Source of the DNA: a virus
Lineage: Duplodnaviria; Heunggongvirae; Uroviricota; Caudoviricetes
Strand: one strand, 5' to 3'
Length of the DNA: 7,942 bases
IMG/VR virus record: IMGVR_UViG_2740892235_000013
Part shown: positions 538-7,942 of the stretch, piece after piece
Position numbering within the stretch: position 1 is the stretch's first letter
Layout of the letters: the number at the start of each line of letters is the position of its first letter
Notes under the pieces: model-generated
What the model saw: the letters and a program-made list of their open reading frames with translations, nothing else
The model's database searches: none
Told to the model about the DNA's origin: nothing
Position numbers and translations under genes: made by a program

Positions 538-1838
538 ATGCAGAGAATAATCGAATTACGCCAGCAGAAAACCGCCATTAAAAATCAGATGCGTGACATG
601 CTGGAGAACGCGGAAAAAGAAAACCGCAGTCTTAACGATGCTGAGGGCGCAAAATTTGACGAATTACGCGCTAAAGCTGAATCCCTCGATAAAGACATTT
701 CCCGCCTTGAAGCCATTGCAGACGAAGAGCGCAGCAAGCCAGGTAAAAGCAGTCAGACCACTGACCCCGCAGAACTACGAAACTACATTCTGACGGGTGA
801 AACCCGCGCATTAAGTACAGGCGTTCCCGCTGATGGTGGTTATACCGTTATCCCCGAGCTGAACACCGAAATCATGCGAATGCTGGCGGATGAGTCCACC
901 ATGCGCCGCATCTGTACCGTGAAGAAAATCAGCAGCAACGAGTTTAAGCAGCTTGTTTCCGCTGGCGGTGCGACCGTTAACCACGGTGAAGAGGGTAAGA
1001 CACGCGAACAGACCAGCACCCCGCAGATTAACGAGGTGAGCATTAAGCTGTATCCGGTCTATGCGTACCCGCGCACCACACAGGAAATCGTGGATTTTTC
1101 CGATGTGGACATCCTTTCATGGCTGACGGGTGAGATTGGCGACACCTTCACGGAAACCGAAGAAAGCGATCTGGTTGTGGGCGACGGTGACAAAAAAGCA
1201 AAAGGTTTTTTATCCGTACCCCGTGCAGAGAAGAACGACAAAGAGCGTGATTTTGGTTCGTTGCAGGTAATTAAACCTTCCGAATCTCTGGCGTGGACAT
1301 CTGCGGACCCGTTGATCGACCTGAAATTTGCATTACGTNNNNNNNNNNCTTTTTATCCGTACCCCGTGCAGAGAAGAACGACAAAGAGCGTGATTTTGGT
1401 ACGTTGCAGGTAATTAAACCTTCCGAATCTCTGGCGTGGACATCTGCGGACCCGTTGATCGACCTGAAATTTGCATTACGTAAAAAATACCGCAAAAACG
1501 CGGTCTGGGTGGTTAACTCCACGACGGCGGCAAAACTTCAGAAGGTGAAGAACGCGAACGGTGATTACATCTGGCGCGACCGTTTACAGGCGGGTGATCC
1601 TGATACGTTGCTGGGCCTTCCGGTCGAATATCTGGAGTTTATGCCTGATAACGTTATTGCCCTGGGTGACTTCAAACGCGGTTACTACATTGTTGATCAC
1701 GAAACAGGTGTTCGCACCAGACCGGACAACCTCACAGAGCCGGGCTTCATCAAAATTTTCACGCAGAAATATTTAGGCGGTGGCGTGGTGGATTCGAACG
1801 CGATCAAGATTCTGGAACTGCCACAGGACGACGATTAA
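538..1838 (+). CDS. Major capsid protein, HK97 fold (about 385 aa once the assembly duplication is collapsed)
   Basis: ATG 538 with AGGA 525-528 upstream; stop TAA 1836-1838. N-terminal coiled-coil delta-domain-like region (IIELRQQKTAIKNQMRDMLENAEKENRSLNDAEGAKFDELRAKAESLDKDISRLEAI), then HK97-capsid-like blocks (GGYTVIPEL, LVVGDGDKKAKGFL, YIWRDRLQAGDPDTLLGLPVEY, GDFKRGYYIVDHETG). The frame is broken only by the N run at 1339-1348 plus a 133-bp duplication (143 nt net, not a multiple of 3). Collapsed length is 1158 bp. Confidence 0.9.
1206..1481. repeat. Tandem near-identical overlap (1206-1338 and 1349-1481) around the 10-N gap at 1339-1348; assembly artefact inside the capsid gene
   Basis: The sequence right of the gap restarts 133 bp upstream of where the left copy ends. 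One substitution between copies (ggttcg vs ggtacg, Ser vs Thr). Confidence 0.85.
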
Positions 1839-1848
1839 CAGCATACAG

Positions 1849-1877
1849 AAGGGGCTTAAAAGCCCCTTTAGTGTTTT
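1849..1877 (+). terminator. Intrinsic terminator or attenuator immediately after the capsid gene
   Basis: 8-bp perfect stem aaggggct (1849-1856) / agcccctt (1861-1868), loop taaa, then tagtgtttt. The T tract is interrupted, so this may be a partial terminator. Confidence 0.6.
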
Positions 1878-1892
1878 ATGGGTGAAAAAATT

Positions 1893-2450
1893 ATGAAGAG
1901 TATGGAAATCCGGTCATCGGAAATCACCACCAGCGGAGCCGGTACGCTGACGGGCTACGTTGTTCGCTGGGATAAGCTTTCAGAACTGTTATGGGGTGAG
2001 TTTTACGAAAAATTCCAGCGGGGAGCGTTTACTGAATGGCTTGCAGCGGGTAATGACGTTCGCGGCCTGTATGAGCATGACCACAGCATGTTACTGGGGC
2101 GTACCCGTTCCGGCACGCTGAAACTGGAAGAGGACGAAACAGGGTTACGCTTTGAACTGACCCCACCGGATACCAGCACAGGGCGGGACGTTATCGAACT
2201 GGTTAAACGTGGTGATATATCCGGCATGAGCTTTGGCTTTCGTTCCCGTAAGGATGTATGGGATACCACAACAGAACCATGCGTGCGCACCGTGCTGGTG
2301 GCGGAACTGTACGAAATTACCGTTACATCCGTTCCGGCTTACCCTGATTCCGGCGTGGAGCTGGCCCGCCGTTCCCTGTATGAGCAGCACCCCGAAAAAA
2401 TGCCGCGTGCGGATAATCGCCGCTGGTGGGTGGATTTAGCGGGGGTGTGA
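1893..2450 (+). CDS. Prohead (head maturation) protease, HK97 family (peptidase S78-like)
   Basis: Family-typical His block (LYEHDHSMLLGRTRSGTL) and Ser block (DISGMSFGF). ATG 1893 has GGTGA 7 nt upstream; the in-frame ATG at 1878 has no RBS and sits inside the terminator T tract, so 1893 is preferred. Stop TGA 2448-2450. Confidence 0.88.
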   Translation: MKSMEIRSSEITTSGAGTLTGYVVRWDKLSELLWGEFYEKFQRGAFTEWLAAGNDVRGLYEHDHSMLLGRTRSGTLKLEEDETGLRFELTPPDTSTGRDVIELVKRGDISGMSFGFRSRKDVWDTTTEPCVRTVLVAELYEITVTSVPAYPDSGVELARRSLYEQHPEKMPRADNRRWWVDLAGV

Positions 2451-2451
2451 T

Positions 2452-3829
2452 ATGTGGCCTTTCAGAAGAAAAAAAGAGCAGCGCAGCATGACGCTTGATG
2501 AATTTATGGCGCTGGCTGGCACATCGAACACGGGGGCGGGTGAGTACGTATCATCGGGGACAGCGGAATCACTGCCCGCCGTCATGAACGCCGTCACGGT
2601 CATCTCTGAGGCGGTGGCTACCATGCCGTGTTACCTGTACCTGGTACGCAATGAGAAGGGGAAGGAGGCCCGCGAGTGGCTTGATTCTCATCCGGTCGAT
2701 CACATCCTCAACGAGCGCCCGAACGCATGGCAAACCCCCTACCAGTTTAAGCGAATGATGATCCGCCACTGCCTGTTAAACGGTAATGCTTATGCGGTGA
2801 TTCAGTGGGGGCGTGATGGTTTTCCGGTGGCTTTACATCCTTACCCGCCGCAGTCGGTGAACGTGGAGCAGACAGGTGAGCATAACTGGCGCTACTGCAT
2901 CACTGACGCCTACACCGGAAACACCCGCAACTATTTACCGTGGGAGGTTCTCCACCTTCGTTACTCCACGGATGACGGTTTTATGGGGCGCTCACCTGTA
3001 ACCATCTGCCGCGAATCGCTGGGGCTTGGGCTGGCCCAACAACGCCACGGCGCGAGCGTGATGCGTGATGGCATGATGGCGGCAGGGGTTATCACGTCAG
3101 GCGAATGGCTGGACGGCGTGAAGGGCAAACAGGCATTAGCCGCACTGGAACGCTACAAAGGGGCCAGAAACGCCGGAAAAACGCCCATCCTTGAAGGGGG
3201 TATGAGCTATCAGCAGCTGGGCATGAGTAATCAGGATGCTGAATGGCTGGCCTCCCGTCGCTTCACCATTGAAGACATCGCCCGAATGTTCAACGTCTCG
3301 CCGATTTTTTTNNNNNNNNNNTAAAGGGGCCAGAAACGCCGGAAAAACGCCCATCCTTGAAGGTGGCATGAGTTACCAGCAGCTGGGCATGAGTAACCAG
3401 GATGCTGAATGGCTGGCCTCCCGTCGCTTCACCATTGAAGACATCGCCCGAATGTTCAACGTCTCGCCGATTTTTTTGCAGGAATACAGCAACAGCACCT
3501 ACAGCAATTTCAGCGAGGCAAGCCGCGCATTTCTCACCATGACGATGCGCCCGTGGCTGGCGAACTTTGAGCAGCAGATAAAAAACGCCCTGCTGGTGGC
3601 CTCGCCTGTACCTGGTATCCGGTATCAGGTGGAGTTTGACAGCGCGGACCTGTTACGGGCCACACCTGGCGAACGCTTTGCCACCTATGAGCGCGGCATC
3701 AAATCCGGCGTTATGTGTCCGAACGAAGCCCGCGAACGTGAAGGACTGTCACCGCGTGATGGTGGTGATGAGTTCAGCCAGGCATGGAAACAGGAAGTAA
3801 AAATCAGCGAGGGAGAAAAACCGGAATGA
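2452..3829 (+). CDS. Portal protein, HK97 family (about 403 aa once the duplication is collapsed)
   Basis: ATG 2452 is 1 nt after the protease stop. Portal-like sequence throughout (RESLGLGLAQQ, GMSNQDAEWLASRRFTIEDIARMFNVSP, PWLANFEQQI). Frame broken only by the N run at 3312-3321 plus a 155-bp duplication (166 nt net). Stop TGA 3827-3829. Confidence 0.9.
3157..3477. repeat. Tandem near-identical overlap (3157-3311 and 3323-3477) around the 10-N gap at 3312-3321; assembly artefact inside the portal gene
   Basis: The copies differ at 5 positions, all synonymous third-codon changes (ggg/ggt, ggt/ggc, agc/agt, tat/tac, aat/aac). Confidence 0.85.
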
Positions 3830-4460
3830 ACATAGGGCGACTGCGTGACAGGGTAACGATTCAGACCCTGAAACAGACCAGGGATATAACCGGCGAAATA
3901 CTCGAAACGTGGGAGGACAGTCACACACTCTGGGCAAGCGTGAACATGGTCAGCAGCAAGGAGGCCATTTCATCGGGTGCAGAGCTGGCGATTGGTACCG
4001 TAAGGATCTGGATACGGTACCGGAAGGACATCAGCGCCACCAGCCGGATAAAGGTCAATACGGGGCCGCTGGCGGGGCGTGTACTGAATATCATCGGGCA
4101 GCCGCTGCCGGATGCCGCCAGGACACGCCTTGAAATTCNNNNNNNNNNATAACGATTCAGACCCTGAAACAGACCAGAGCCATGACGGGCGAAATACTCG
4201 AAACGTGGGAGGACGGTCACACACTCTGGGCAAGCGTGAACATGATCAGCAGCAAGGAGGCCATTTCATCGGGCGCAGAGCTGGCGATTGGTACCGTAAG
4301 GATCTGGATACGGTACCGGAAGGACATCAACGCCACCAGTCGGATAAAGGTCAGTACGGGGCCGCTGGCGGGGCGTGTACTGAATATCATCGGGCAGCCG
4401 CTGCCGGATGCCGCCAGGACACGCCTTGAAATTCTTTGTCGTGAGGGCGCGGAAAAATGA
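3826..4460 (+). CDS. Head-closure / head-tail joining protein (SPP1 gp16-like family), 112 aa once collapsed
   Basis: ATG 3826 overlaps the portal stop (ATGA). Family-like pattern LRDRVTIQ...GE..ETWED.HTLWASV...S.KEAISSGAELAIGTVRIWIRYRKDI. Frame interrupted by the N run at 4139-4148 plus a 286-bp duplication (296 nt net). Stop TGA 4458-4460. Confidence 0.8.
3854..4434. repeat. Tandem near-identical overlap (3854-4138 and 4150-4434) around the 10-N gap at 4139-4148; assembly artefact inside the head-closure gene
   Basis: About 10 substitutions between copies, including amino-acid changes (DI/AM, S/G, V/I, S/N, N/S) and synonymous changes. Confidence 0.85.
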
Positions 4461-4916
4461 CAGAAGAACTTATCACCCTGGAAGAAGTGAAACTCCATTG
4501 CCGCATCGATGGCGACGATGAAGACCAGTTAATCAGCGGATACATTGCCGCATCGCTTGAGGCGTGCCAGATACACATAGGCAGGCGCTTTGATGACGGG
4601 CTGGAGTTCACGCCAGCCATAAAGATTGGCTGCATGATGTTTATCGCTCACCTGTANNNNNNNNNNTATCGATGGCGACGAGGAAGACCAGTTAATCAGC
4701 GGATACATTGCCGCATCGCTTGAGGCGTGCCAGATACATATAGGCAGGCGCTTTGATGACGGGCTGGAGTTCACGCCAGCCATAAAGATTGGCTGCATGA
4801 TGTTTATCGCTCACCTGTATGAGAATCGCCAGATTGTCGCGGATAACGCAAAAACACGCGTACCCATGACGATTGGCGCACTCTGGACGGCTTACCGTGA
4901 TGTGGGGGTGTACTGA
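4457..4916 (+). CDS. gp6-like head-tail connector protein, 98 aa once collapsed
   Basis: ATG 4457 overlaps the upstream stop (ATGA). N-terminus MTEELITLEEVKLHCRIDGDDEDQLISGYIAASLEA is typical of gp6-like connectors. Frame interrupted by the N run at 4657-4666 plus a 152-bp duplication (163 nt net). Stop TGA 4914-4916. Confidence 0.75.
4505..4819. repeat. Tandem near-identical overlap (4505-4656 and 4668-4819) around the 10-N gap at 4657-4666; assembly artefact inside the connector gene
   Basis: Two substitutions between copies: gat/gag (Asp/Glu) and cac/cat (synonymous). Confidence 0.85.
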
Positions 4917-5356
4917 TGCCGTGGCAACCATTAAGACGATGCACAGAACCAGGCTGTAACAGGCGCGTTAAATCCGGCAAGTGTGAGGAGCACAGGCGGG
5001 CGGCATGGCGTGCAGAGGATGCCAGACGAGGACACCGCCGCGCGCGTGGATATTCCAGACAGTGGGACAAATACCGCGCCATGTATCTGAGTAAAAACCC
5101 GTTATGCGTGCGATGCCTTGAGAAGGGGATATATACGCCCGCCGTGGTGGTGGATCACATTATCCCGATTAATGGCGGTGATGATGTTCTCTTCTGGCCC
5201 GAATGGAACCATCAACCATTGTGCCAGGCGTGTCATAACCAGAAAACGAAATGGCTTGATCCGGCAACAAAAAGCAAGCGTGCCGCAGGTGGATTTCGTG
5301 AAGAGGAAGAACGGGCCGCTAACCGCAATAACTGGATGTATGACGCTGATGAATGA
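4916..5356 (+). CDS. HNH endonuclease (phage packaging-associated type), 146 aa
   Basis: ATG 4916 overlaps the connector stop (TGATG). Cys-rich N-terminus (CTEPGCNRRVKSGKCEEH) and HNH core (VVDHIIPINGG...NHQPLCQACHNQKT). Stop TGA 5354-5356. Confidence 0.9.
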   Translation: MPWQPLRRCTEPGCNRRVKSGKCEEHRRAAWRAEDARRGHRRARGYSRQWDKYRAMYLSKNPLCVRCLEKGIYTPAVVVDHIIPINGGDDVLFWPEWNHQPLCQACHNQKTKWLDPATKSKRAAGGFREEEERAANRNNWMYDADE

Positions 5357-5522
5357 GCGGGAGCAAAACCGCCTTATCCGTGGACTTATAAGGCAGCGTG
5401 ACGCATGGAAGACACAGGAAACAGGGCATAAAGATAAAGCGTCAGGACGCGCAGAACGCATCACAGCGAAGCGATTAACCGACCGTGACCGCGAGGTTAT
5501 GGAATGTTTCCGCAATCGCTGA
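5349..5522 (+). CDS. Small hypothetical protein (57 aa, Arg/Lys-rich)
   Basis: ATG 5349 overlaps the HNH stop by 8 nt (ATGAATGA). Translation MNEREQNRLIRGLIRQRDAWKTQETGHKDKASGRAERITAKRLTDRDREVMECFRNR. No clear RBS, so translation would have to be coupled. No recognisable family. Confidence 0.4.
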   Translation: MNEREQNRLIRGLIRQRDAWKTQETGHKDKASGRAERITAKRLTDRDREVMECFRNR

Positions 5523-5645
5523 TGAGGCTGTATGACGGGGTGGGGGGCGTTTTCAGGACCAACCCGACCCCGCCGGGCACCGAACGCCTCCTCAAATTTT
5601 TATGCACGGGAATTTTTTGAAAAATAATCTGGCGAAAAAATAAGC
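5523..5645. promoter_or_regulatory. Non-coding spacer upstream of terS; candidate cos/packaging-initiation region
   Basis: 123 bp with no ORF. G-run gacggggtggggggcgttttcagg followed by C-rich caacccgaccccgccgggcaccg, then an AT-rich tract (aaatttttatgcacgggaattttttgaaaaataat). Sits between HNH and terS, where cos lies in HK97-type phages. Confidence 0.35.
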
Positions 5646-6002
5646 ATGGCAAGACCACCGAAAGCCCCCGCCTACCTGGATGATATCGCCGTGAAGCAGT
5701 GGCGGGAAAAATCGCGGCAGCTTGCGGAACGGGGAGACCTGACCCCCGCCGACTGGAGCAATCTGGAACTGTATTGTGTCAACTACTCCATTTACCGGAA
5801 AGCCGTTGCAGACCTTGCGGCGCGCGGGTTCAGCATTGTTAACAGTCAGGGCGGCGAGAGCAGAAACCCCGCATTAAGCGCAAAATCCGACGCTGAAAGA
5901 GTGATGATAAAAATGGCCTCCTTGCTCGGTTTTGACCCGATAAGCCGCCGTAAAAATCCACCGGAAACAGAAGAAGAGGACGAGCTTGACCGCCTGGAAT
6001 AA
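5646..6002 (+). CDS. terS: Terminase small subunit, P27 family, 118 aa
   Basis: ATG 5646, stop TAA 6000-6002. P27-family-like pattern (LTPADWSNLELYCVNYSIYRKA...NPALSAKSDAERVMIKMASLLGFDPISRRK) with an acidic C-terminus. Confidence 0.85.
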   Translation: MARPPKAPAYLDDIAVKQWREKSRQLAERGDLTPADWSNLELYCVNYSIYRKAVADLAARGFSIVNSQGGESRNPALSAKSDAERVMIKMASLLGFDPISRRKNPPETEEEDELDRLE

Positions 6003-7647
6003 GTACGCAGAAGACGTAAAAACGGGCAAAATTCCGGCCTGTAAACGGCTGAAACAGGCCGTTAAACGGTACTTTTCGGACCTTGAAAGCCCCCTTTACA
6101 CGTTCGATCGTGAGGTTGTGGAGCGGTTTATTGCCTTTTCCAGGGTGTGCCCGCACGTAAAAGGGCCGATGCGTGGCAGACCCATTGAGCTGGAGCCGTG
6201 GCAGCAGTTCGCCTTTGCGTGCATCCTCGGCTTTAAGGTTAAGGCCACCGGACGGCGCAAATACACGAGCGCCTTTATCGAAGTGCCGCGCAAAAATGCG
6301 AAATCCACGACCGCCGCGATTCTGGCTAACTGGTTTCTGATTATGGAGAACGGGCAGCAGGATATTTACACCGCAGCGGTGAGCCGTGACCAGGCGCGGA
6401 TCGTTTTTGATGATGCGCGTCAGATGTGCCTTTTATCCCGACCGTTACGCAGGCGGGTGAATATTCAGGCCCACAAGGTGATGCACCCGAAAAGCAACAG
6501 CCTGTTAAAGCCGCTGGCAGCAAAAGCGGCAACCATCGAGGGAACAAACCCCAGCCTTTCCATCGTGGACGAATACCACCTACACCCCGATAACGGCGTT
6601 TATTCCGCGCTTGAGCTGGGGATGGGCGCACGTCCCGAAGGGCTGTTATTTGCCATTACCACATCGGGCAGTAACGTCGTTTCAGCCTGTAAACAGCACT
6701 ATGATTATTGCTGCCAGATCCTGGACGGCGAAGAGGTCAATGATTCAATTTTTGTGCTGATTTACGAGCTGGACGACGAAAACGAGGTTGATGATCCGGC
6801 GATGTGGATAAAGGCTAACCCTAACATCGATGTTTCCGTGGATCGTGAAAAACTGGCCTCAACCATCCAGAAAGCGCGGGGTATTCCGTCGCAATGGGTG
6901 GAGATGATGACAAAGCGATTTAATATCTGGTGCCAGGGGGCTACCCCGTGGATGGGTAACGGCGCATGGGCTGAGTGTGCCGGAACGTTCACGGAGGAAG
7001 ATTTACACGGGCAGGAGTGTTACGCGGGGCTGGACTTATCATCAACCAGCGATATTTCCAGCGTGTGCTATGCCTTTCCGGTCGGTAAAAATATCATGCT
7101 GGTTTCCCGTCATTATCTGCCGGAGTTCCAGCTACAGAACCCCGCCAATAAAAACCGCGCTGTCTATCGCCAGTGGGCTAAAGCGGGCTGGATACGCACA
7201 ACGCCAGGTGACTGCATTGATTACGACCGGATCAGAGATGACATCATGCAGGATGCGGAGAAATTTAATATCAGGCTGGTGGGCTTTGATACGTGGAACG
7301 CCACGCATCTCAGGACGCAATTACAGGGGGCTGGTTTTGAGGTGGAGCCGTTCCCGCAAACCTACCTCAGATTCAGTCCGGCGGCGAAATCGTTCGAAGT
7401 TTTTGTTAACCGCAGGGTGATTGTGCATCGTGGCGATCCGGTGTTGTCCTGGTCGATGAGTAACGTCGTGATGCAGAGTGACGCGAACGCCAATATCAAG
7501 CCGAACAAGAAAAAATCACCGAACAAGATAGACCCGAGCGTAGCGGCGCTGATGGCGTTTGGTACATTCCAGGCAGAGCATGAGGATTTTGCTTTTGATA
7601 TAAGCGACAGCCACCGCCAGAAACTGGAAGAATTTAGCGGGGTGTAA
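5986..7647 (+). CDS. terL: Terminase large subunit, 553 aa
   Basis: TTG 5986 is the only start codon in frame after the upstream stop at 5941-5943; it overlaps terS by 17 nt with a purine-rich stretch (gaagaagagga) upstream. N-terminal blocks typical of this terminase family (YAEDVKTGKIPACKRLKQAVKRY, HVKGPMRGRPIELEPWQQF), P-loop-like PRKNAKSTTAA, acidic nuclease-domain residues downstream. Stop TAA 7645-7647. Confidence 0.9.
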   Translation: MTAWNKYAEDVKTGKIPACKRLKQAVKRYFSDLESPLYTFDREVVERFIAFSRVCPHVKGPMRGRPIELEPWQQFAFACILGFKVKATGRRKYTSAFIEVPRKNAKSTTAAILANWFLIMENGQQDIYTAAVSRDQARIVFDDARQMCLLSRPLRRRVNIQAHKVMHPKSNSLLKPLAAKAATIEGTNPSLSIVDEYHLHPDNGVYSALELGMGARPEGLLFAITTSGSNVVSACKQHYDYCCQILDGEEVNDSIFVLIYELDDENEVDDPAMWIKANPNIDVSVDREKLASTIQKARGIPSQWVEMMTKRFNIWCQGATPWMGNGAWAECAGTFTEEDLHGQECYAGLDLSSTSDISSVCYAFPVGKNIMLVSRHYLPEFQLQNPANKNRAVYRQWAKAGWIRTTPGDCIDYDRIRDDIMQDAEKFNIRLVGFDTWNATHLRTQLQGAGFEVEPFPQTYLRFSPAAKSFEVFVNRRVIVHRGDPVLSWSMSNVVMQSDANANIKPNKKKSPNKIDPSVAALMAFGTFQAEHEDFAFDISDSHRQKLEEFSGV

Positions 7648-7660
7648 TGAGGTCAGCAGC

Positions 7661-7942
7661 ATGACAGAAGCCGAAATACTGCGATTAATCCGCCGCGTCT
7701 CTGGAATCAGCCAGCAGGCTGACGAACAGACCACGCAGCCGGACAGCGTGACAGCCGAAAATTATGCGCGTGTTGTTGCTGAGGTGATGCGCCGTGATGG
7801 TATCCAGCTTAATGATGCGGATATGCGCGACATACGGATCCGCGTTCTGGAAATGCTGGCCTACAATCGCCGCGTTGAACTGTATCGGGAGAAGGAGAAA
7901 ATCACGTATCACTGGAAGAAGCCGGAGCGGTTACGGCGGTAA
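7661..7942 (+). CDS. Hypothetical protein (93 aa) immediately downstream of terL
   Basis: ATG 7661 with GAGG 8 nt upstream; stop TAA 7940-7942 at the window edge. Translation MTEAEILRLIRRVSGISQQADEQTT...; no recognisable family. Occupies the position where a portal gene sits in canonical phages. Confidence 0.5.
   Translation: MTEAEILRLIRRVSGISQQADEQTTQPDSVTAENYARVVAEVMRRDGIQLNDADMRDIRIRVLEMLAYNRRVELYREKEKITYHWKKPERLRR

Follow-up and report, generated by a model that had tools for sequence, protein, structure and literature searches.

A head and packaging module matching that of the capsid-forming phage-inducible chromosomal island EcCIEDL933, in a stitched viral scaffold

Introduction

Phage-inducible chromosomal islands of the capsid-forming type (cf-PICIs) are satellites of very high abundance; they build their own capsids and acquire tails from phages, which makes gene transfer across species possible. 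The family was described in 2022, and its founding member is EcCIEDL933 of Escherichia coli O157:H7 EDL933 (NZ_CP008957.1, about 1,680,158-1,695,618). In this prototype, a helper phage (HK106 or HK446) turns on alpA, and excision and replication of the island follow. The island's own capsid, protease and portal proteins build small T=4 capsids of 47.5 nm, into which only the ~15.5 kb island fits, while its head-closure and adaptor proteins complete the tail-less heads and set which helper-phage tails can dock. Each of the packaging genes, including those for the HNH endonuclease and both terminase subunits, is needed for transfer of the island and none for transfer of the helper phage; specifically, mutants of eight of the nine genes abolish island transfer. 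Protein identity between EcCIEDL933 and HK106 has been reported to be low.

The DNA analysed here, hereafter the window, is a stretch of 7,942 nt from the viral record IMGVR_UViG_2740892235_000013. A preliminary description made from the sequence alone had read it as the tail-less head and packaging module of a cf-PICI-type satellite. We conclude, with a probability of about 0.95, that the packaging operon of an EcCIEDL933-type cf-PICI of E. coli is present in full in the window, preceded by the last part of a gene for a PerC-family regulator. This is an allele of the founding member, a known and common element; as one more prototype allele, it adds nothing new to the picture of cf-PICIs, apart from two small leads, namely a candidate AlpA operator and the position of cos.

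Make-up of the window

The preliminary description passed over the fact that the window is not continuous DNA. It is a scaffold stitched together from six pieces, with a run of exactly 10 N at each of the five joins, and the ends of neighbouring pieces are duplicated over 137, 133, 156, 286 and 153 nt:

138-147, 1339-1348, 3312-3321, 4139-4148 and 4657-4666, strand not applicable: N10 scaffold spacers
1-137, + strand: orphan copy of the first 137 nt of the capsid gene, equal to 538-674 with 2 mismatches
1349-1481: duplicated flank, equal to 1206-1338
3322-3477: duplicated flank, equal to 3156-3311
4149-4434: duplicated flank, equal to 3853-4138
4667-4819: duplicated flank, equal to 4504-4656

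Because the pieces overlap in the coordinates of complete islands, the N10 joins and duplicated ends come from the joining of assembly pieces rather than from tandem duplication. Four genes (capsid, portal, head-closure and adaptor) are broken in the raw sequence, and they become continuous only once the overlaps are collapsed, giving a length of 7,027 bp in which all ten reading frames are intact. Scaffolds stitched in this way can therefore imitate interrupted or duplicated genes, and deserve caution. The five overlaps all contain mismatches (2-12 each, up to 4.2%), so at least two slightly different templates must have contributed to the scaffold, and the exact haplotype of the window may for that reason be chimeric. 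The nearest island is L002 for pieces 0-3 and L003 for piece 4, while piece 5 is nearest to both L001 and L002. The orphan copy, an allele beginning MPRII that is truncated by the start of the window, belongs to another assembly piece, of which it is the end, and is 100% identical to L002.

Packaging genes

Nine co-directional genes had been proposed from position 538 onward, and Pfam and phrog matches uphold both their identity and their order, all on the + strand and opening with an ATG at 538. That account passed over a tenth co-directional open reading frame, orf93, as well as the PerC gene end described below. The ten genes are:

538-1838, +: major capsid protein, HK97 fold, 385 aa (Phage_capsid PF05065, 2e-61)
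1878-2450, +: prohead serine protease (S78), 190 aa (Peptidase_S78 PF04586, 9e-48)
2452-3829, +: portal protein, 403 aa, spanning a spacer (Phage_portal PF04860, 9e-91)
3826-4460, +: head-closure (head-completion) protein, 112 aa, spanning a spacer (Phage_HCP PF05521, 2e-23; phrog_25, Hc1)
4457-4916, +: gp6-like head-tail adaptor, 98 aa, spanning a spacer (Phage_connect_1 PF05135, 6e-12; phrog_40, Ad1)
4916-5356, +: HNH endonuclease, terminase packaging accessory, 146 aa (PF01844, 2e-8; phrog_144, 8e-45)
5340-5522, +: basic 60-aa open reading frame (phrog_3173, 7e-37)
5646-6002, +: small terminase terS, P27 family, 118 aa (Terminase_4 PF05119, 1e-23)
5986-7647, +: large terminase terL, 553 aa, TTG start (TerL_ATPase, 1e-25, and TerL_nuclease, 2e-50; PF03354, PF20441)
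7661-7942, +: orf93, 93 aa (phrog_1561, 1.5e-55)

Family matches for the first nine lie far beyond threshold (Pfam throughout, with the small open reading frame placed by phrog_3173), and the successive junctions along the operon measure 39, 1, -4, -4, -1, -17, 123, -17 and 13 nt, negative values being overlaps. The preliminary description called this order scrambled, which holds relative to HK97; it is nonetheless exactly the published nine-gene order that defines the packaging module of cf-PICIs, here with every gene intact once the overlaps are collapsed. As that description also maintained, no open reading frame in the window resembles a tail tube, tape-measure, baseplate or lysis gene.

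Comparison with the prototype was made protein by protein. The capsid gene has a coding length of 1,158 nt after removal of 143 nt of spacer and duplicate, and its product is identical at 382 of 385 positions to PDB 9GYI, the cryo-EM structure identified in its paper as the EcCIEDL933 capsid. Its delta domain spans residues 1-92, the mature N-terminus is S93 (STGVPAD), and the residues found experimentally to be critical (D257, K290, D295, E319, R345 and the loop 227-248) are all kept. The protease (184/190 identical), portal (401/403), adaptor (97/98), HNH endonuclease (145/146), terS (118/118) and terL (544/553, with ATPase and nuclease domains) are likewise close to their EcCIEDL933 counterparts, and the index of an assembly collection has the window's exact protease allele in 1,054 blocks. 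Two head-closure alleles, differing at 7 residues, occur within the duplicated stretch; that of piece 3 differs from EcCIEDL933 at 8 of 112 residues and that of piece 4 at 1 of 103. The 60-aa product is identical at all 60 positions to that of the EcCIEDL933 "hypothetical gene 1792", mutation of which severely reduces island transfer.

Finally, orf93 is conserved as the closing gene of the operon in all islands examined, although it falls outside the nine published packaging genes. It has no Pfam, NCBIfam or PADLOC match (nor has the 60-aa product in NCBIfam or PADLOC), and a single-sequence AF2 model yields a generic three-helix bundle with a pLDDT of 68, judged too weak for a fold search.

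Region upstream of the operon

Three features precede the capsid gene:

148-250, +: 3' end of a PerC-family regulator gene, last 33 codons and stop
256-273, +: terminator-like hairpin and T-run after the PerC gene (terminator scan)
297-321, +: TTGTT array, TTGTTCGTGGTTGTTCCACGTTGTT, three repeats 10 bp apart (0 expected by chance)

The segment bearing the PerC end is 97.7% identical to positions 37381-37510 of L003, in which the annotated PerC gene occupies 37211-37483. PerC is the final gene of the regulation and replication half of the island, and so part of that left half is visible in the window itself, represented there by this 3' end only.

The TTGTT array is phased at one repeat per helical turn. 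It occurs in exactly 3 copies in each of 11 island loci (described below): one sits in an att arm, one in either the other arm or the intergenic region between int and alpA, and one upstream of the capsid gene; it is absent from the empty site of K-12, and a comparable shared repeat was not found in the divergent cf-PICI vB_KppS-Ant. In islands L012 and L013, which have a different Int/AlpA, the copy upstream of the capsid gene is unchanged and the arms bear a related but different TTGTT-phased repeat, a pattern that is suggestive of covariation between the element and the AlpA allele without being a clean case of it. The capsid-upstream copy is composite, its halves matching the arm repeats of two different Int/AlpA types. 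Positions 297-321 are a candidate operator for an AlpA/Xis-type protein ahead of the packaging operon. It is tempting, though speculative and on balance doubtful, to suggest that they form a previously undescribed operator of the Xis-like activator AlpA, such that excision, expression of AlpA itself and the packaging operon would all be driven by one helper-induced protein. If so, the packaging module could recombine with different int/alpA modules and, owing to the composite copy, would still respond. The published descriptions consulted give no AlpA binding motif for EcCIEDL933. Scanning the window for sigma-70 promoters and terminators returned no more sites than shuffled sequences, so that the operon cannot be assigned a promoter, and Rfam at gathering thresholds detected no RNA family in the window.

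A probable cos region and a hairpin within the operon

Two further non-coding features lie between genes of the module:

1848-1869, +: G+C-rich hairpin and T-run between the capsid and protease genes (terminator scan)
5523-5645, strand not applicable: 123-nt gap between the HNH side and terS, the largest intergenic gap in the module, with the conserved block GGGGTGGGGGGCGTTTTCAGGAC at 5535-5559

The hairpin is possibly a partial terminator that would give an excess of capsid protein. The gap before terS is the probable cos region; in HK97-type phages, cos is likewise placed between the HNH gene and terS. The linear record of vB_KppS-Ant, a virion-derived relative, ends at the base aligned to 5559. 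Cohesive ends have been reported for cf-PICI DNA, having been shown for a related cf-PICI, and the published descriptions consulted give no mapped cos site for EcCIEDL933. Folded as DNA, the gap is not significantly structured (z = -0.92).

Island context in related genomes

Eleven contexts, complete genomes among them, hold copies of the module that are 96.5-99.8% identical to the window. The preliminary description had pointed to integrase, alpA and replication genes, flanking att repeats and an absence of tail and lysis genes as what should surround such a module, and all of these were found. In 11 of 11 contexts the order is int (PF00589 plus an arm-binding domain), AlpA (PF05930), DUF4222, a helicase or primase, SSB and PerC, then the module and orf93, and then host genes, which begin ~0.7-1.4 kb past orf93; no tail or lysis gene occurs in any of them. 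The module closes an island of ~15.4 kb, present at three insertion sites with host genes at its flanks. For example, comparison with the empty site of K-12 shows the EDL933 island to be a clean insertion of 15,461 bp with a 10 bp duplication, GGACATATTT, and a relative inserted at tqsA is bounded by a 9 bp direct repeat, ATAACAGCA. A 75-nt flanking direct repeat considered as the att core was rejected, the K-12 comparison identifying the 10 bp duplication and placing the 75-nt repeats as island-internal arm sequences. Roughly one in four complete E. coli genomes contains a match, with up to 6 matching places per genome.

The hallmarks of cf-PICIs that lie beyond the module (int, AlpA and replication genes to its left, a size of ~10-18 kb and att repeats) are therefore measured on relatives rather than on the source copy, whereas the lack of any lytic gene and of a complete tail module is seen in the window as well as in the 11 contexts. 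By extension from these near-identical islands, and not from its own assembly, the source would be expected to carry the same integrase, alpA, replication genes and att sites, without tails.

Interpretation

The satellite interpretation proposed earlier is well sustained, in that the encoded proteins are 93-100% identical to those of EcCIEDL933. Since the frames are also intact and the critical capsid residues conserved, we infer the prototype's mechanism for this copy, which would be a helper-induced island that makes its own small capsids and borrows helper tails. By the same analogy, the helper and tail specificity of this allele is predicted to be that of the prototype.

The module's genes are homologous to phage genes, and the window stops 0 nt past orf93, leaving the DNA downstream unseen; one could accordingly imagine a complete, tailed HK97-like prophage with a rearranged gene order, of which the module would be the portion for head and packaging, with tail and lysis genes just outside. 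This is barely credible, however, given that the window itself shows PerC immediately upstream and that all 11 near-identical contexts run from orf93 into host genes. The arrangement of a complete HK97-like temperate phage, with terS-terL-portal-protease-capsid and a head module followed by tail, tape-measure and lysis genes, was not found in the window or in any of the related contexts, and no tailed phage record carrying the module exists in the phage collection searched. There, DNA matches to either half of the module are 66-78% identical and confined to satellite-sized or fragment records and one unannotated record of 106 kb, no record covers the terS-terL half at 80% or more, and the capsids of ~40 kb phages reach at most 40% identity. 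The 106 kb record, which bears the label of a Klebsiella phage, does have a 78%-identical module, but its order (terS, terL, an integrase-sized gene, a primase-sized gene, then capsid to portal) is the layout of a cos-linearised satellite and not that of a head module with tails after it. Cryptic prophage is the historical annotation of such elements, and phage-like genes without tails would also fit a decaying remnant with non-functional head genes and lost tails. Ten intact reading frames with tight translational coupling, near-identical copies at three insertion sites and in so many E. coli genomes, and a prototype that is experimentally inducible, packaged and transferred, with each of its nine genes needed for full transfer, make decay highly unlikely.

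A different matter, compatible with the cf-PICI assignment, is whether the window alternates between two co-resident or co-sampled EcCIEDL933-type islands. We consider such a chimera rather probable in view of the mismatches in every overlap, the affinity of different pieces to different islands, the presence of both head-closure alleles and the multiple matching places in complete genomes. The pieces are nevertheless collinear with every collapsed frame intact, mosaicism among islands is natural, and the adaptor/connector region is variable in the literature.

Comparison with known systems

As an EcCIEDL933-type cf-PICI operon, the window shares with the prototype the same ten genes, order and spacing, with 0-9 amino-acid differences per protein, DNA identity of 96.5-99.2% piece by piece and the same capsid maturation motif at S93; the differences within the module are allelic. 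EDL933 has a ~330 bp segment with a 74-aa open reading frame between PerC and the capsid gene that the window lacks; this region is known to vary, and the segment is also missing in L001, L006 and L012. Outside the window, the primase of EDL933 is of the DUF927 type; in its place, the window's closest complete relatives encode a RepA/AAA_25 helicase.

Other cf-PICIs, including EcCIGN02175, KpCIDSM30104 and three elements deposited as phages (vB_KppS-Ant and Pasteurella Pmp7 and Pmp8, the latter two matched over module genes only), share the module content at 57-65% capsid identity and 66-78% DNA identity. vB_KppS-Ant, recovered from an induced lysate, has the gene order of the window but differs from EcCIEDL933-type islands in integrase, regulator and accessory genes; it and Pmp8 measure 15-17 kb, and Pmp7 10.7 kb.

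HK97-type cos phages, such as HK97 and the helper HK106, have the same families of capsid with cleaved delta domain, S78 protease, portal, adaptor, closure, HNH, terS and terL proteins. Their order is portal-protease-capsid-adaptor-closure, in contrast to capsid-protease-portal-closure-adaptor-HNH-terS-terL in the window, their capsids are T=7 rather than the T=4 of EcCIEDL933, and they carry the tail and lysis genes that this module lacks. Finally, classical Gram-negative PICIs such as EcCICFT073 share the left half of the island (int, alpA and rep) and an AlpA-dependent, helper-induced life cycle, but encode neither capsid, portal and connector proteins nor terL, their packaging taking place in capsids made by the helper.

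Sequence Structure and Gene Content

The window is a stitched scaffold rather than one continuous stretch of DNA. Five N10 runs (138-147, 1339-1348, 3312-3321, 4139-4148 and 4657-4666) divide it into six pieces, each of which after the first opens with a copy of the preceding piece's end (137, 133, 156, 286 and 153 nt, with 2, 2, 6, 12 and 3 mismatches, respectively), flank divergence around the spacers reaching 4.2%. Placed on the complete islands of finished genomes, the pieces map collinearly and overlap mutually, so the duplications reflect scaffold joining rather than biological repetition. Since the overlaps carry mismatches, two or more slightly different templates must have gone into the scaffold, probably two co-resident copies of a capsid-forming phage-inducible chromosomal island (cf-PICI) or a collapsed repeat. 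Once the overlaps are collapsed, the sequence is 7,027 bp long and carries ten co-directional genes, all of them intact. The raw window should be read with these scaffold artefacts in mind.

Genes of the window, with Pfam or PHROGs matches and residue differences from the prototype cf-PICI, EcCIEDL933
148-250: PerC-family regulator gene, 3' end
538..1838: capsid, 385 aa; Phage_capsid, 2e-61; 3/385
1878-2450: protease, 190 aa; Peptidase_S78, 9e-48; 6/190
2452..3829: portal, 403 aa; Phage_portal, 9e-91; 2/403
3826..4460: head-closure, 112 aa; Phage_HCP, 2e-23; 8/112 for one window allele, 1/103 for the other
4457..4916: gp6-like adaptor, 98 aa; Phage_connect_1, 6e-12; 1/98
4916-5356: HNH, 146 aa; HNH, 2e-8, and phrog_144, 8e-45; 1/146
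5340-5522: small ORF, 60 aa; PHROG 3173; 0/60
5646-6002: terS, 118 aa; Terminase_4, 1e-23; 0/118
5986-7647: terL, TTG start, 553 aa; TerL_ATPase and TerL_nuclease (Pfam); 9/553
7661-7942: orf93, 93 aa; PHROG 1561; 6/93

Every family call in the nine-gene order given by the preliminary description was recovered at strong Pfam/PHROGs E-values; the scaffold structure, the tenth ORF (orf93) and the PerC fragment had been omitted. For the 60-aa and 93-aa ORFs, PHROGs of unknown function were the sole matches in the Pfam and PHROGs search. By the same search, the window has no tail-, tape-measure-, baseplate- or lysis-like gene, as originally described. Gene junctions in the collapsed sequence, from capsid to orf93, are tight (39, 1, -4, -4, -1, -17, 123, -17 and 13 nt). 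A strong G+C hairpin with a T-run lies between the capsid and protease genes (1848-1869), and may be a partial terminator giving surplus capsid transcript. The window also holds two head-closure alleles (3853-4138 versus 4149-4434) differing at 7 amino-acid positions; in the cf-PICI literature, the head-closure/adaptor gene pair is a variable region that sets tail specificity.

Identity with EcCIEDL933

On its sequence, the element is an allele of EcCIEDL933, the prototype of a family that was described in 2022, and the EcCIEDL933 capsid structure has been solved. It is an already known element and a common one in E. coli. Many finished E. coli chromosomes match the window's largest piece at 99.8% identity; matches to it occur in 1,303 of 5,426 complete genomes, and in 517 they span at least 80% of the piece. 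EcCIEDL933 was located in the EDL933 chromosome and compared gene by gene with the window, giving the differences tabulated here. The window capsid matches PDB 9GYI, the cryo-EM model of the EcCIEDL933 capsid according to the depositing paper, at 382 of 385 residues. It retains the maturation motif SxGxxAD at S93 and the 227-248 loop, as well as D257, K290, D295, E319 and R345, residues whose mutation in EcCIEDL933 reduced or abolished transfer. After EcCIEDL933's own, the capsid proteins of the Rhodobacter capsulatus gene transfer agent (6TB9 and 6TBA; E about 1e-46) are the nearest in sequence among solved structures.

Island Context

Eleven related loci were examined, five from finished genomes and six via exact-protein look-up, chosen as copies up to 99.8% identical or as carrying the exact protease allele. 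All 11 possess a left half comprising a tyrosine integrase, a 62-74 aa AlpA (PF05930), small ORFs, DUF4222, a helicase or primase, SSB and PerC, followed by capsid through terL and orf93, with host genes ~0.7-1.4 kb further on; tail and lysis genes are absent from all of them. The helicase is of the RepA/AAA_25 type, in place of which EDL933 has a DUF927 primase. Three insertion sites were found, one inside tqsA, one between roxA and phoQ and one close to rcnR/thiM. In K-12, roxA adjoins phoQ; measured against this empty site, the island insertion in EDL933 is 15,461 bp long, in agreement with the published 15.4-15.5 kb, and is flanked by a 10 bp duplication, GGACATATTT. Near-identity to EcCIEDL933, together with relatives of island architecture bearing integrase, AlpA, replication genes and direct repeats, supports the original proposal of a cf-PICI-type satellite.

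Within the PerC-capsid interval, the window lacks a ~330 bp segment (251-537 versus 37511-37840 of island locus L003). This segment, carrying a 74-100 aa ORF, is present in loci L002, L003, L007 to L011 and L013 and absent from L001, L006 and L012; across its 287-bp intergenic region, the window matches L012 at 100% identity. Outside the window, three 17-18-nt iterons, AAAAGTGGGGAGCAAAA, spaced ~84 nt apart, directly follow the helicase gene (L001 10900-11084; L012 7056-7241), and are likely the island replication origin. Finally, a ~48-nt repeat array (CGGTAACTGGTTGATATTTTCG...) begins in the last codons of orf93 (7925-7942) and runs ~430 bp toward the right end of the island (L003 44756-45182; L001 19254-19544); it could represent binding sites in the right att arm.

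A Phased TTGTT Element

Upstream of capsid, at 297-321, lies a 25-nt element, TTGTTCGTGGTTGTTCCACGTTGTT, in which TTGTT occurs once per helical turn (TTGTT-N5-TTGTT-N5-TTGTT); chance alone would give none in the window. The phased triplet is present in exactly three copies in each of the 11 loci, every copy inside the island: one in an att arm, one either between int and alpA or in the other arm, and one ahead of capsid (L003 30241-30264, 31628-31651 and 37884-37907; L012 1799-1822, 8563-8586 and 15971-15994). The K-12 empty site lacks it. Where islands have a different Int/AlpA allele, their arms carry TTGTTCGTGGTTGTT, a sequence identical to the first half of the element upstream of capsid. 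Lambda Xis binds directly repeated, helically phased DNA sites. Since AlpA is an Xis-like activator that activates its own promoter in a classical PICI, and given this site geometry, it is plausible that the arrays constitute a shared candidate AlpA/Xis-type operator. No AlpA binding motif was found published in the cf-PICI/PICI literature examined.

A Candidate cos Site

The cos site probably lies within the 123-nt gap at 5523-5645, because no other gap in the module is sizeable and this one sits between HNH/1792 (gene 1792 being the EcCIEDL933 counterpart of the 60-aa ORF) and terS, the position of cos in HK97-type phages. The gap contains a conserved G-rich block, GGGGTGGGGGGCGTTTTCAGGAC, at 5535-5559. 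The linear record of virion-derived vB_KppS-Ant (LR881103.1) ends, physically or otherwise, exactly at the base aligned to 5559, which suggests a candidate cos cleavage site.

Predicted Mechanism

The helper phages HK106 and HK446 induce EcCIEDL933, for which alpA is needed. Island transfer was abolished by mutating any packaging gene except gene 1792, whose mutation severely reduced it, and none of these mutations affected helper transfer; helper capsid and packaging mutants left island transfer unchanged, whereas helper tail mutants abolished it. The T=4, 47.5 nm capsid is made solely of protease-matured capsid protein and holds the 15.5 kb genome; cf-PICI adaptor and connector proteins determine which phage tails fit. 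Packaged DNA with cohesive cos ends has been shown for a related cf-PICI. Given its near-identity and intact frames, the window copy would be expected to operate in the same manner. HK106-type tails are its likely partner, because the adaptor and one of the two head-closure alleles are virtually the same proteins as in EcCIEDL933.

Comparison with Phages and Other Satellites

Among 50,697 phage-collection records, none covers at least 80% of the terS-terL half, and the head half is covered only by satellite-like records at 69-70% identity. The best DNA matches overall (66-78% identity) are records of 10-17 kb (vB_KppS-Ant and Pasteurella Pmp7 and Pmp8), fragments, and one unannotated 106 kb Klebsiella record. 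vB_KppS-Ant, recovered from an induced lysate and deposited as a phage, is 16.5 kb long and has cf-PICI architecture. After terL it carries a 765-aa gene (2036-4333) with a tape measure annotation, which probably belongs to the accessory genes of the known variable region. The Klebsiella record carries terS, terL, an integrase-sized gene, a primase-sized gene, and capsid to portal at the record end, the layout of a cos-linearised satellite and not head-then-tail. The block lies at ~90,600-106,503 of a record labelled a complete Klebsiella phage genome (PQ569648.1), possibly a mis-join or host-derived contig.

Phages of ~40 kb share at most 40% protein identity with the window capsid, consistent with the published <40% for phage homologues. 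The gene order, initially termed "scrambled", does differ from that of the HK97 head genes, but the term does not otherwise apply: the published cf-PICI module has nine genes, of which the ninth, "hypothetical gene 1792", is small and lies between HNH and terS, and the window matches its order and content exactly.
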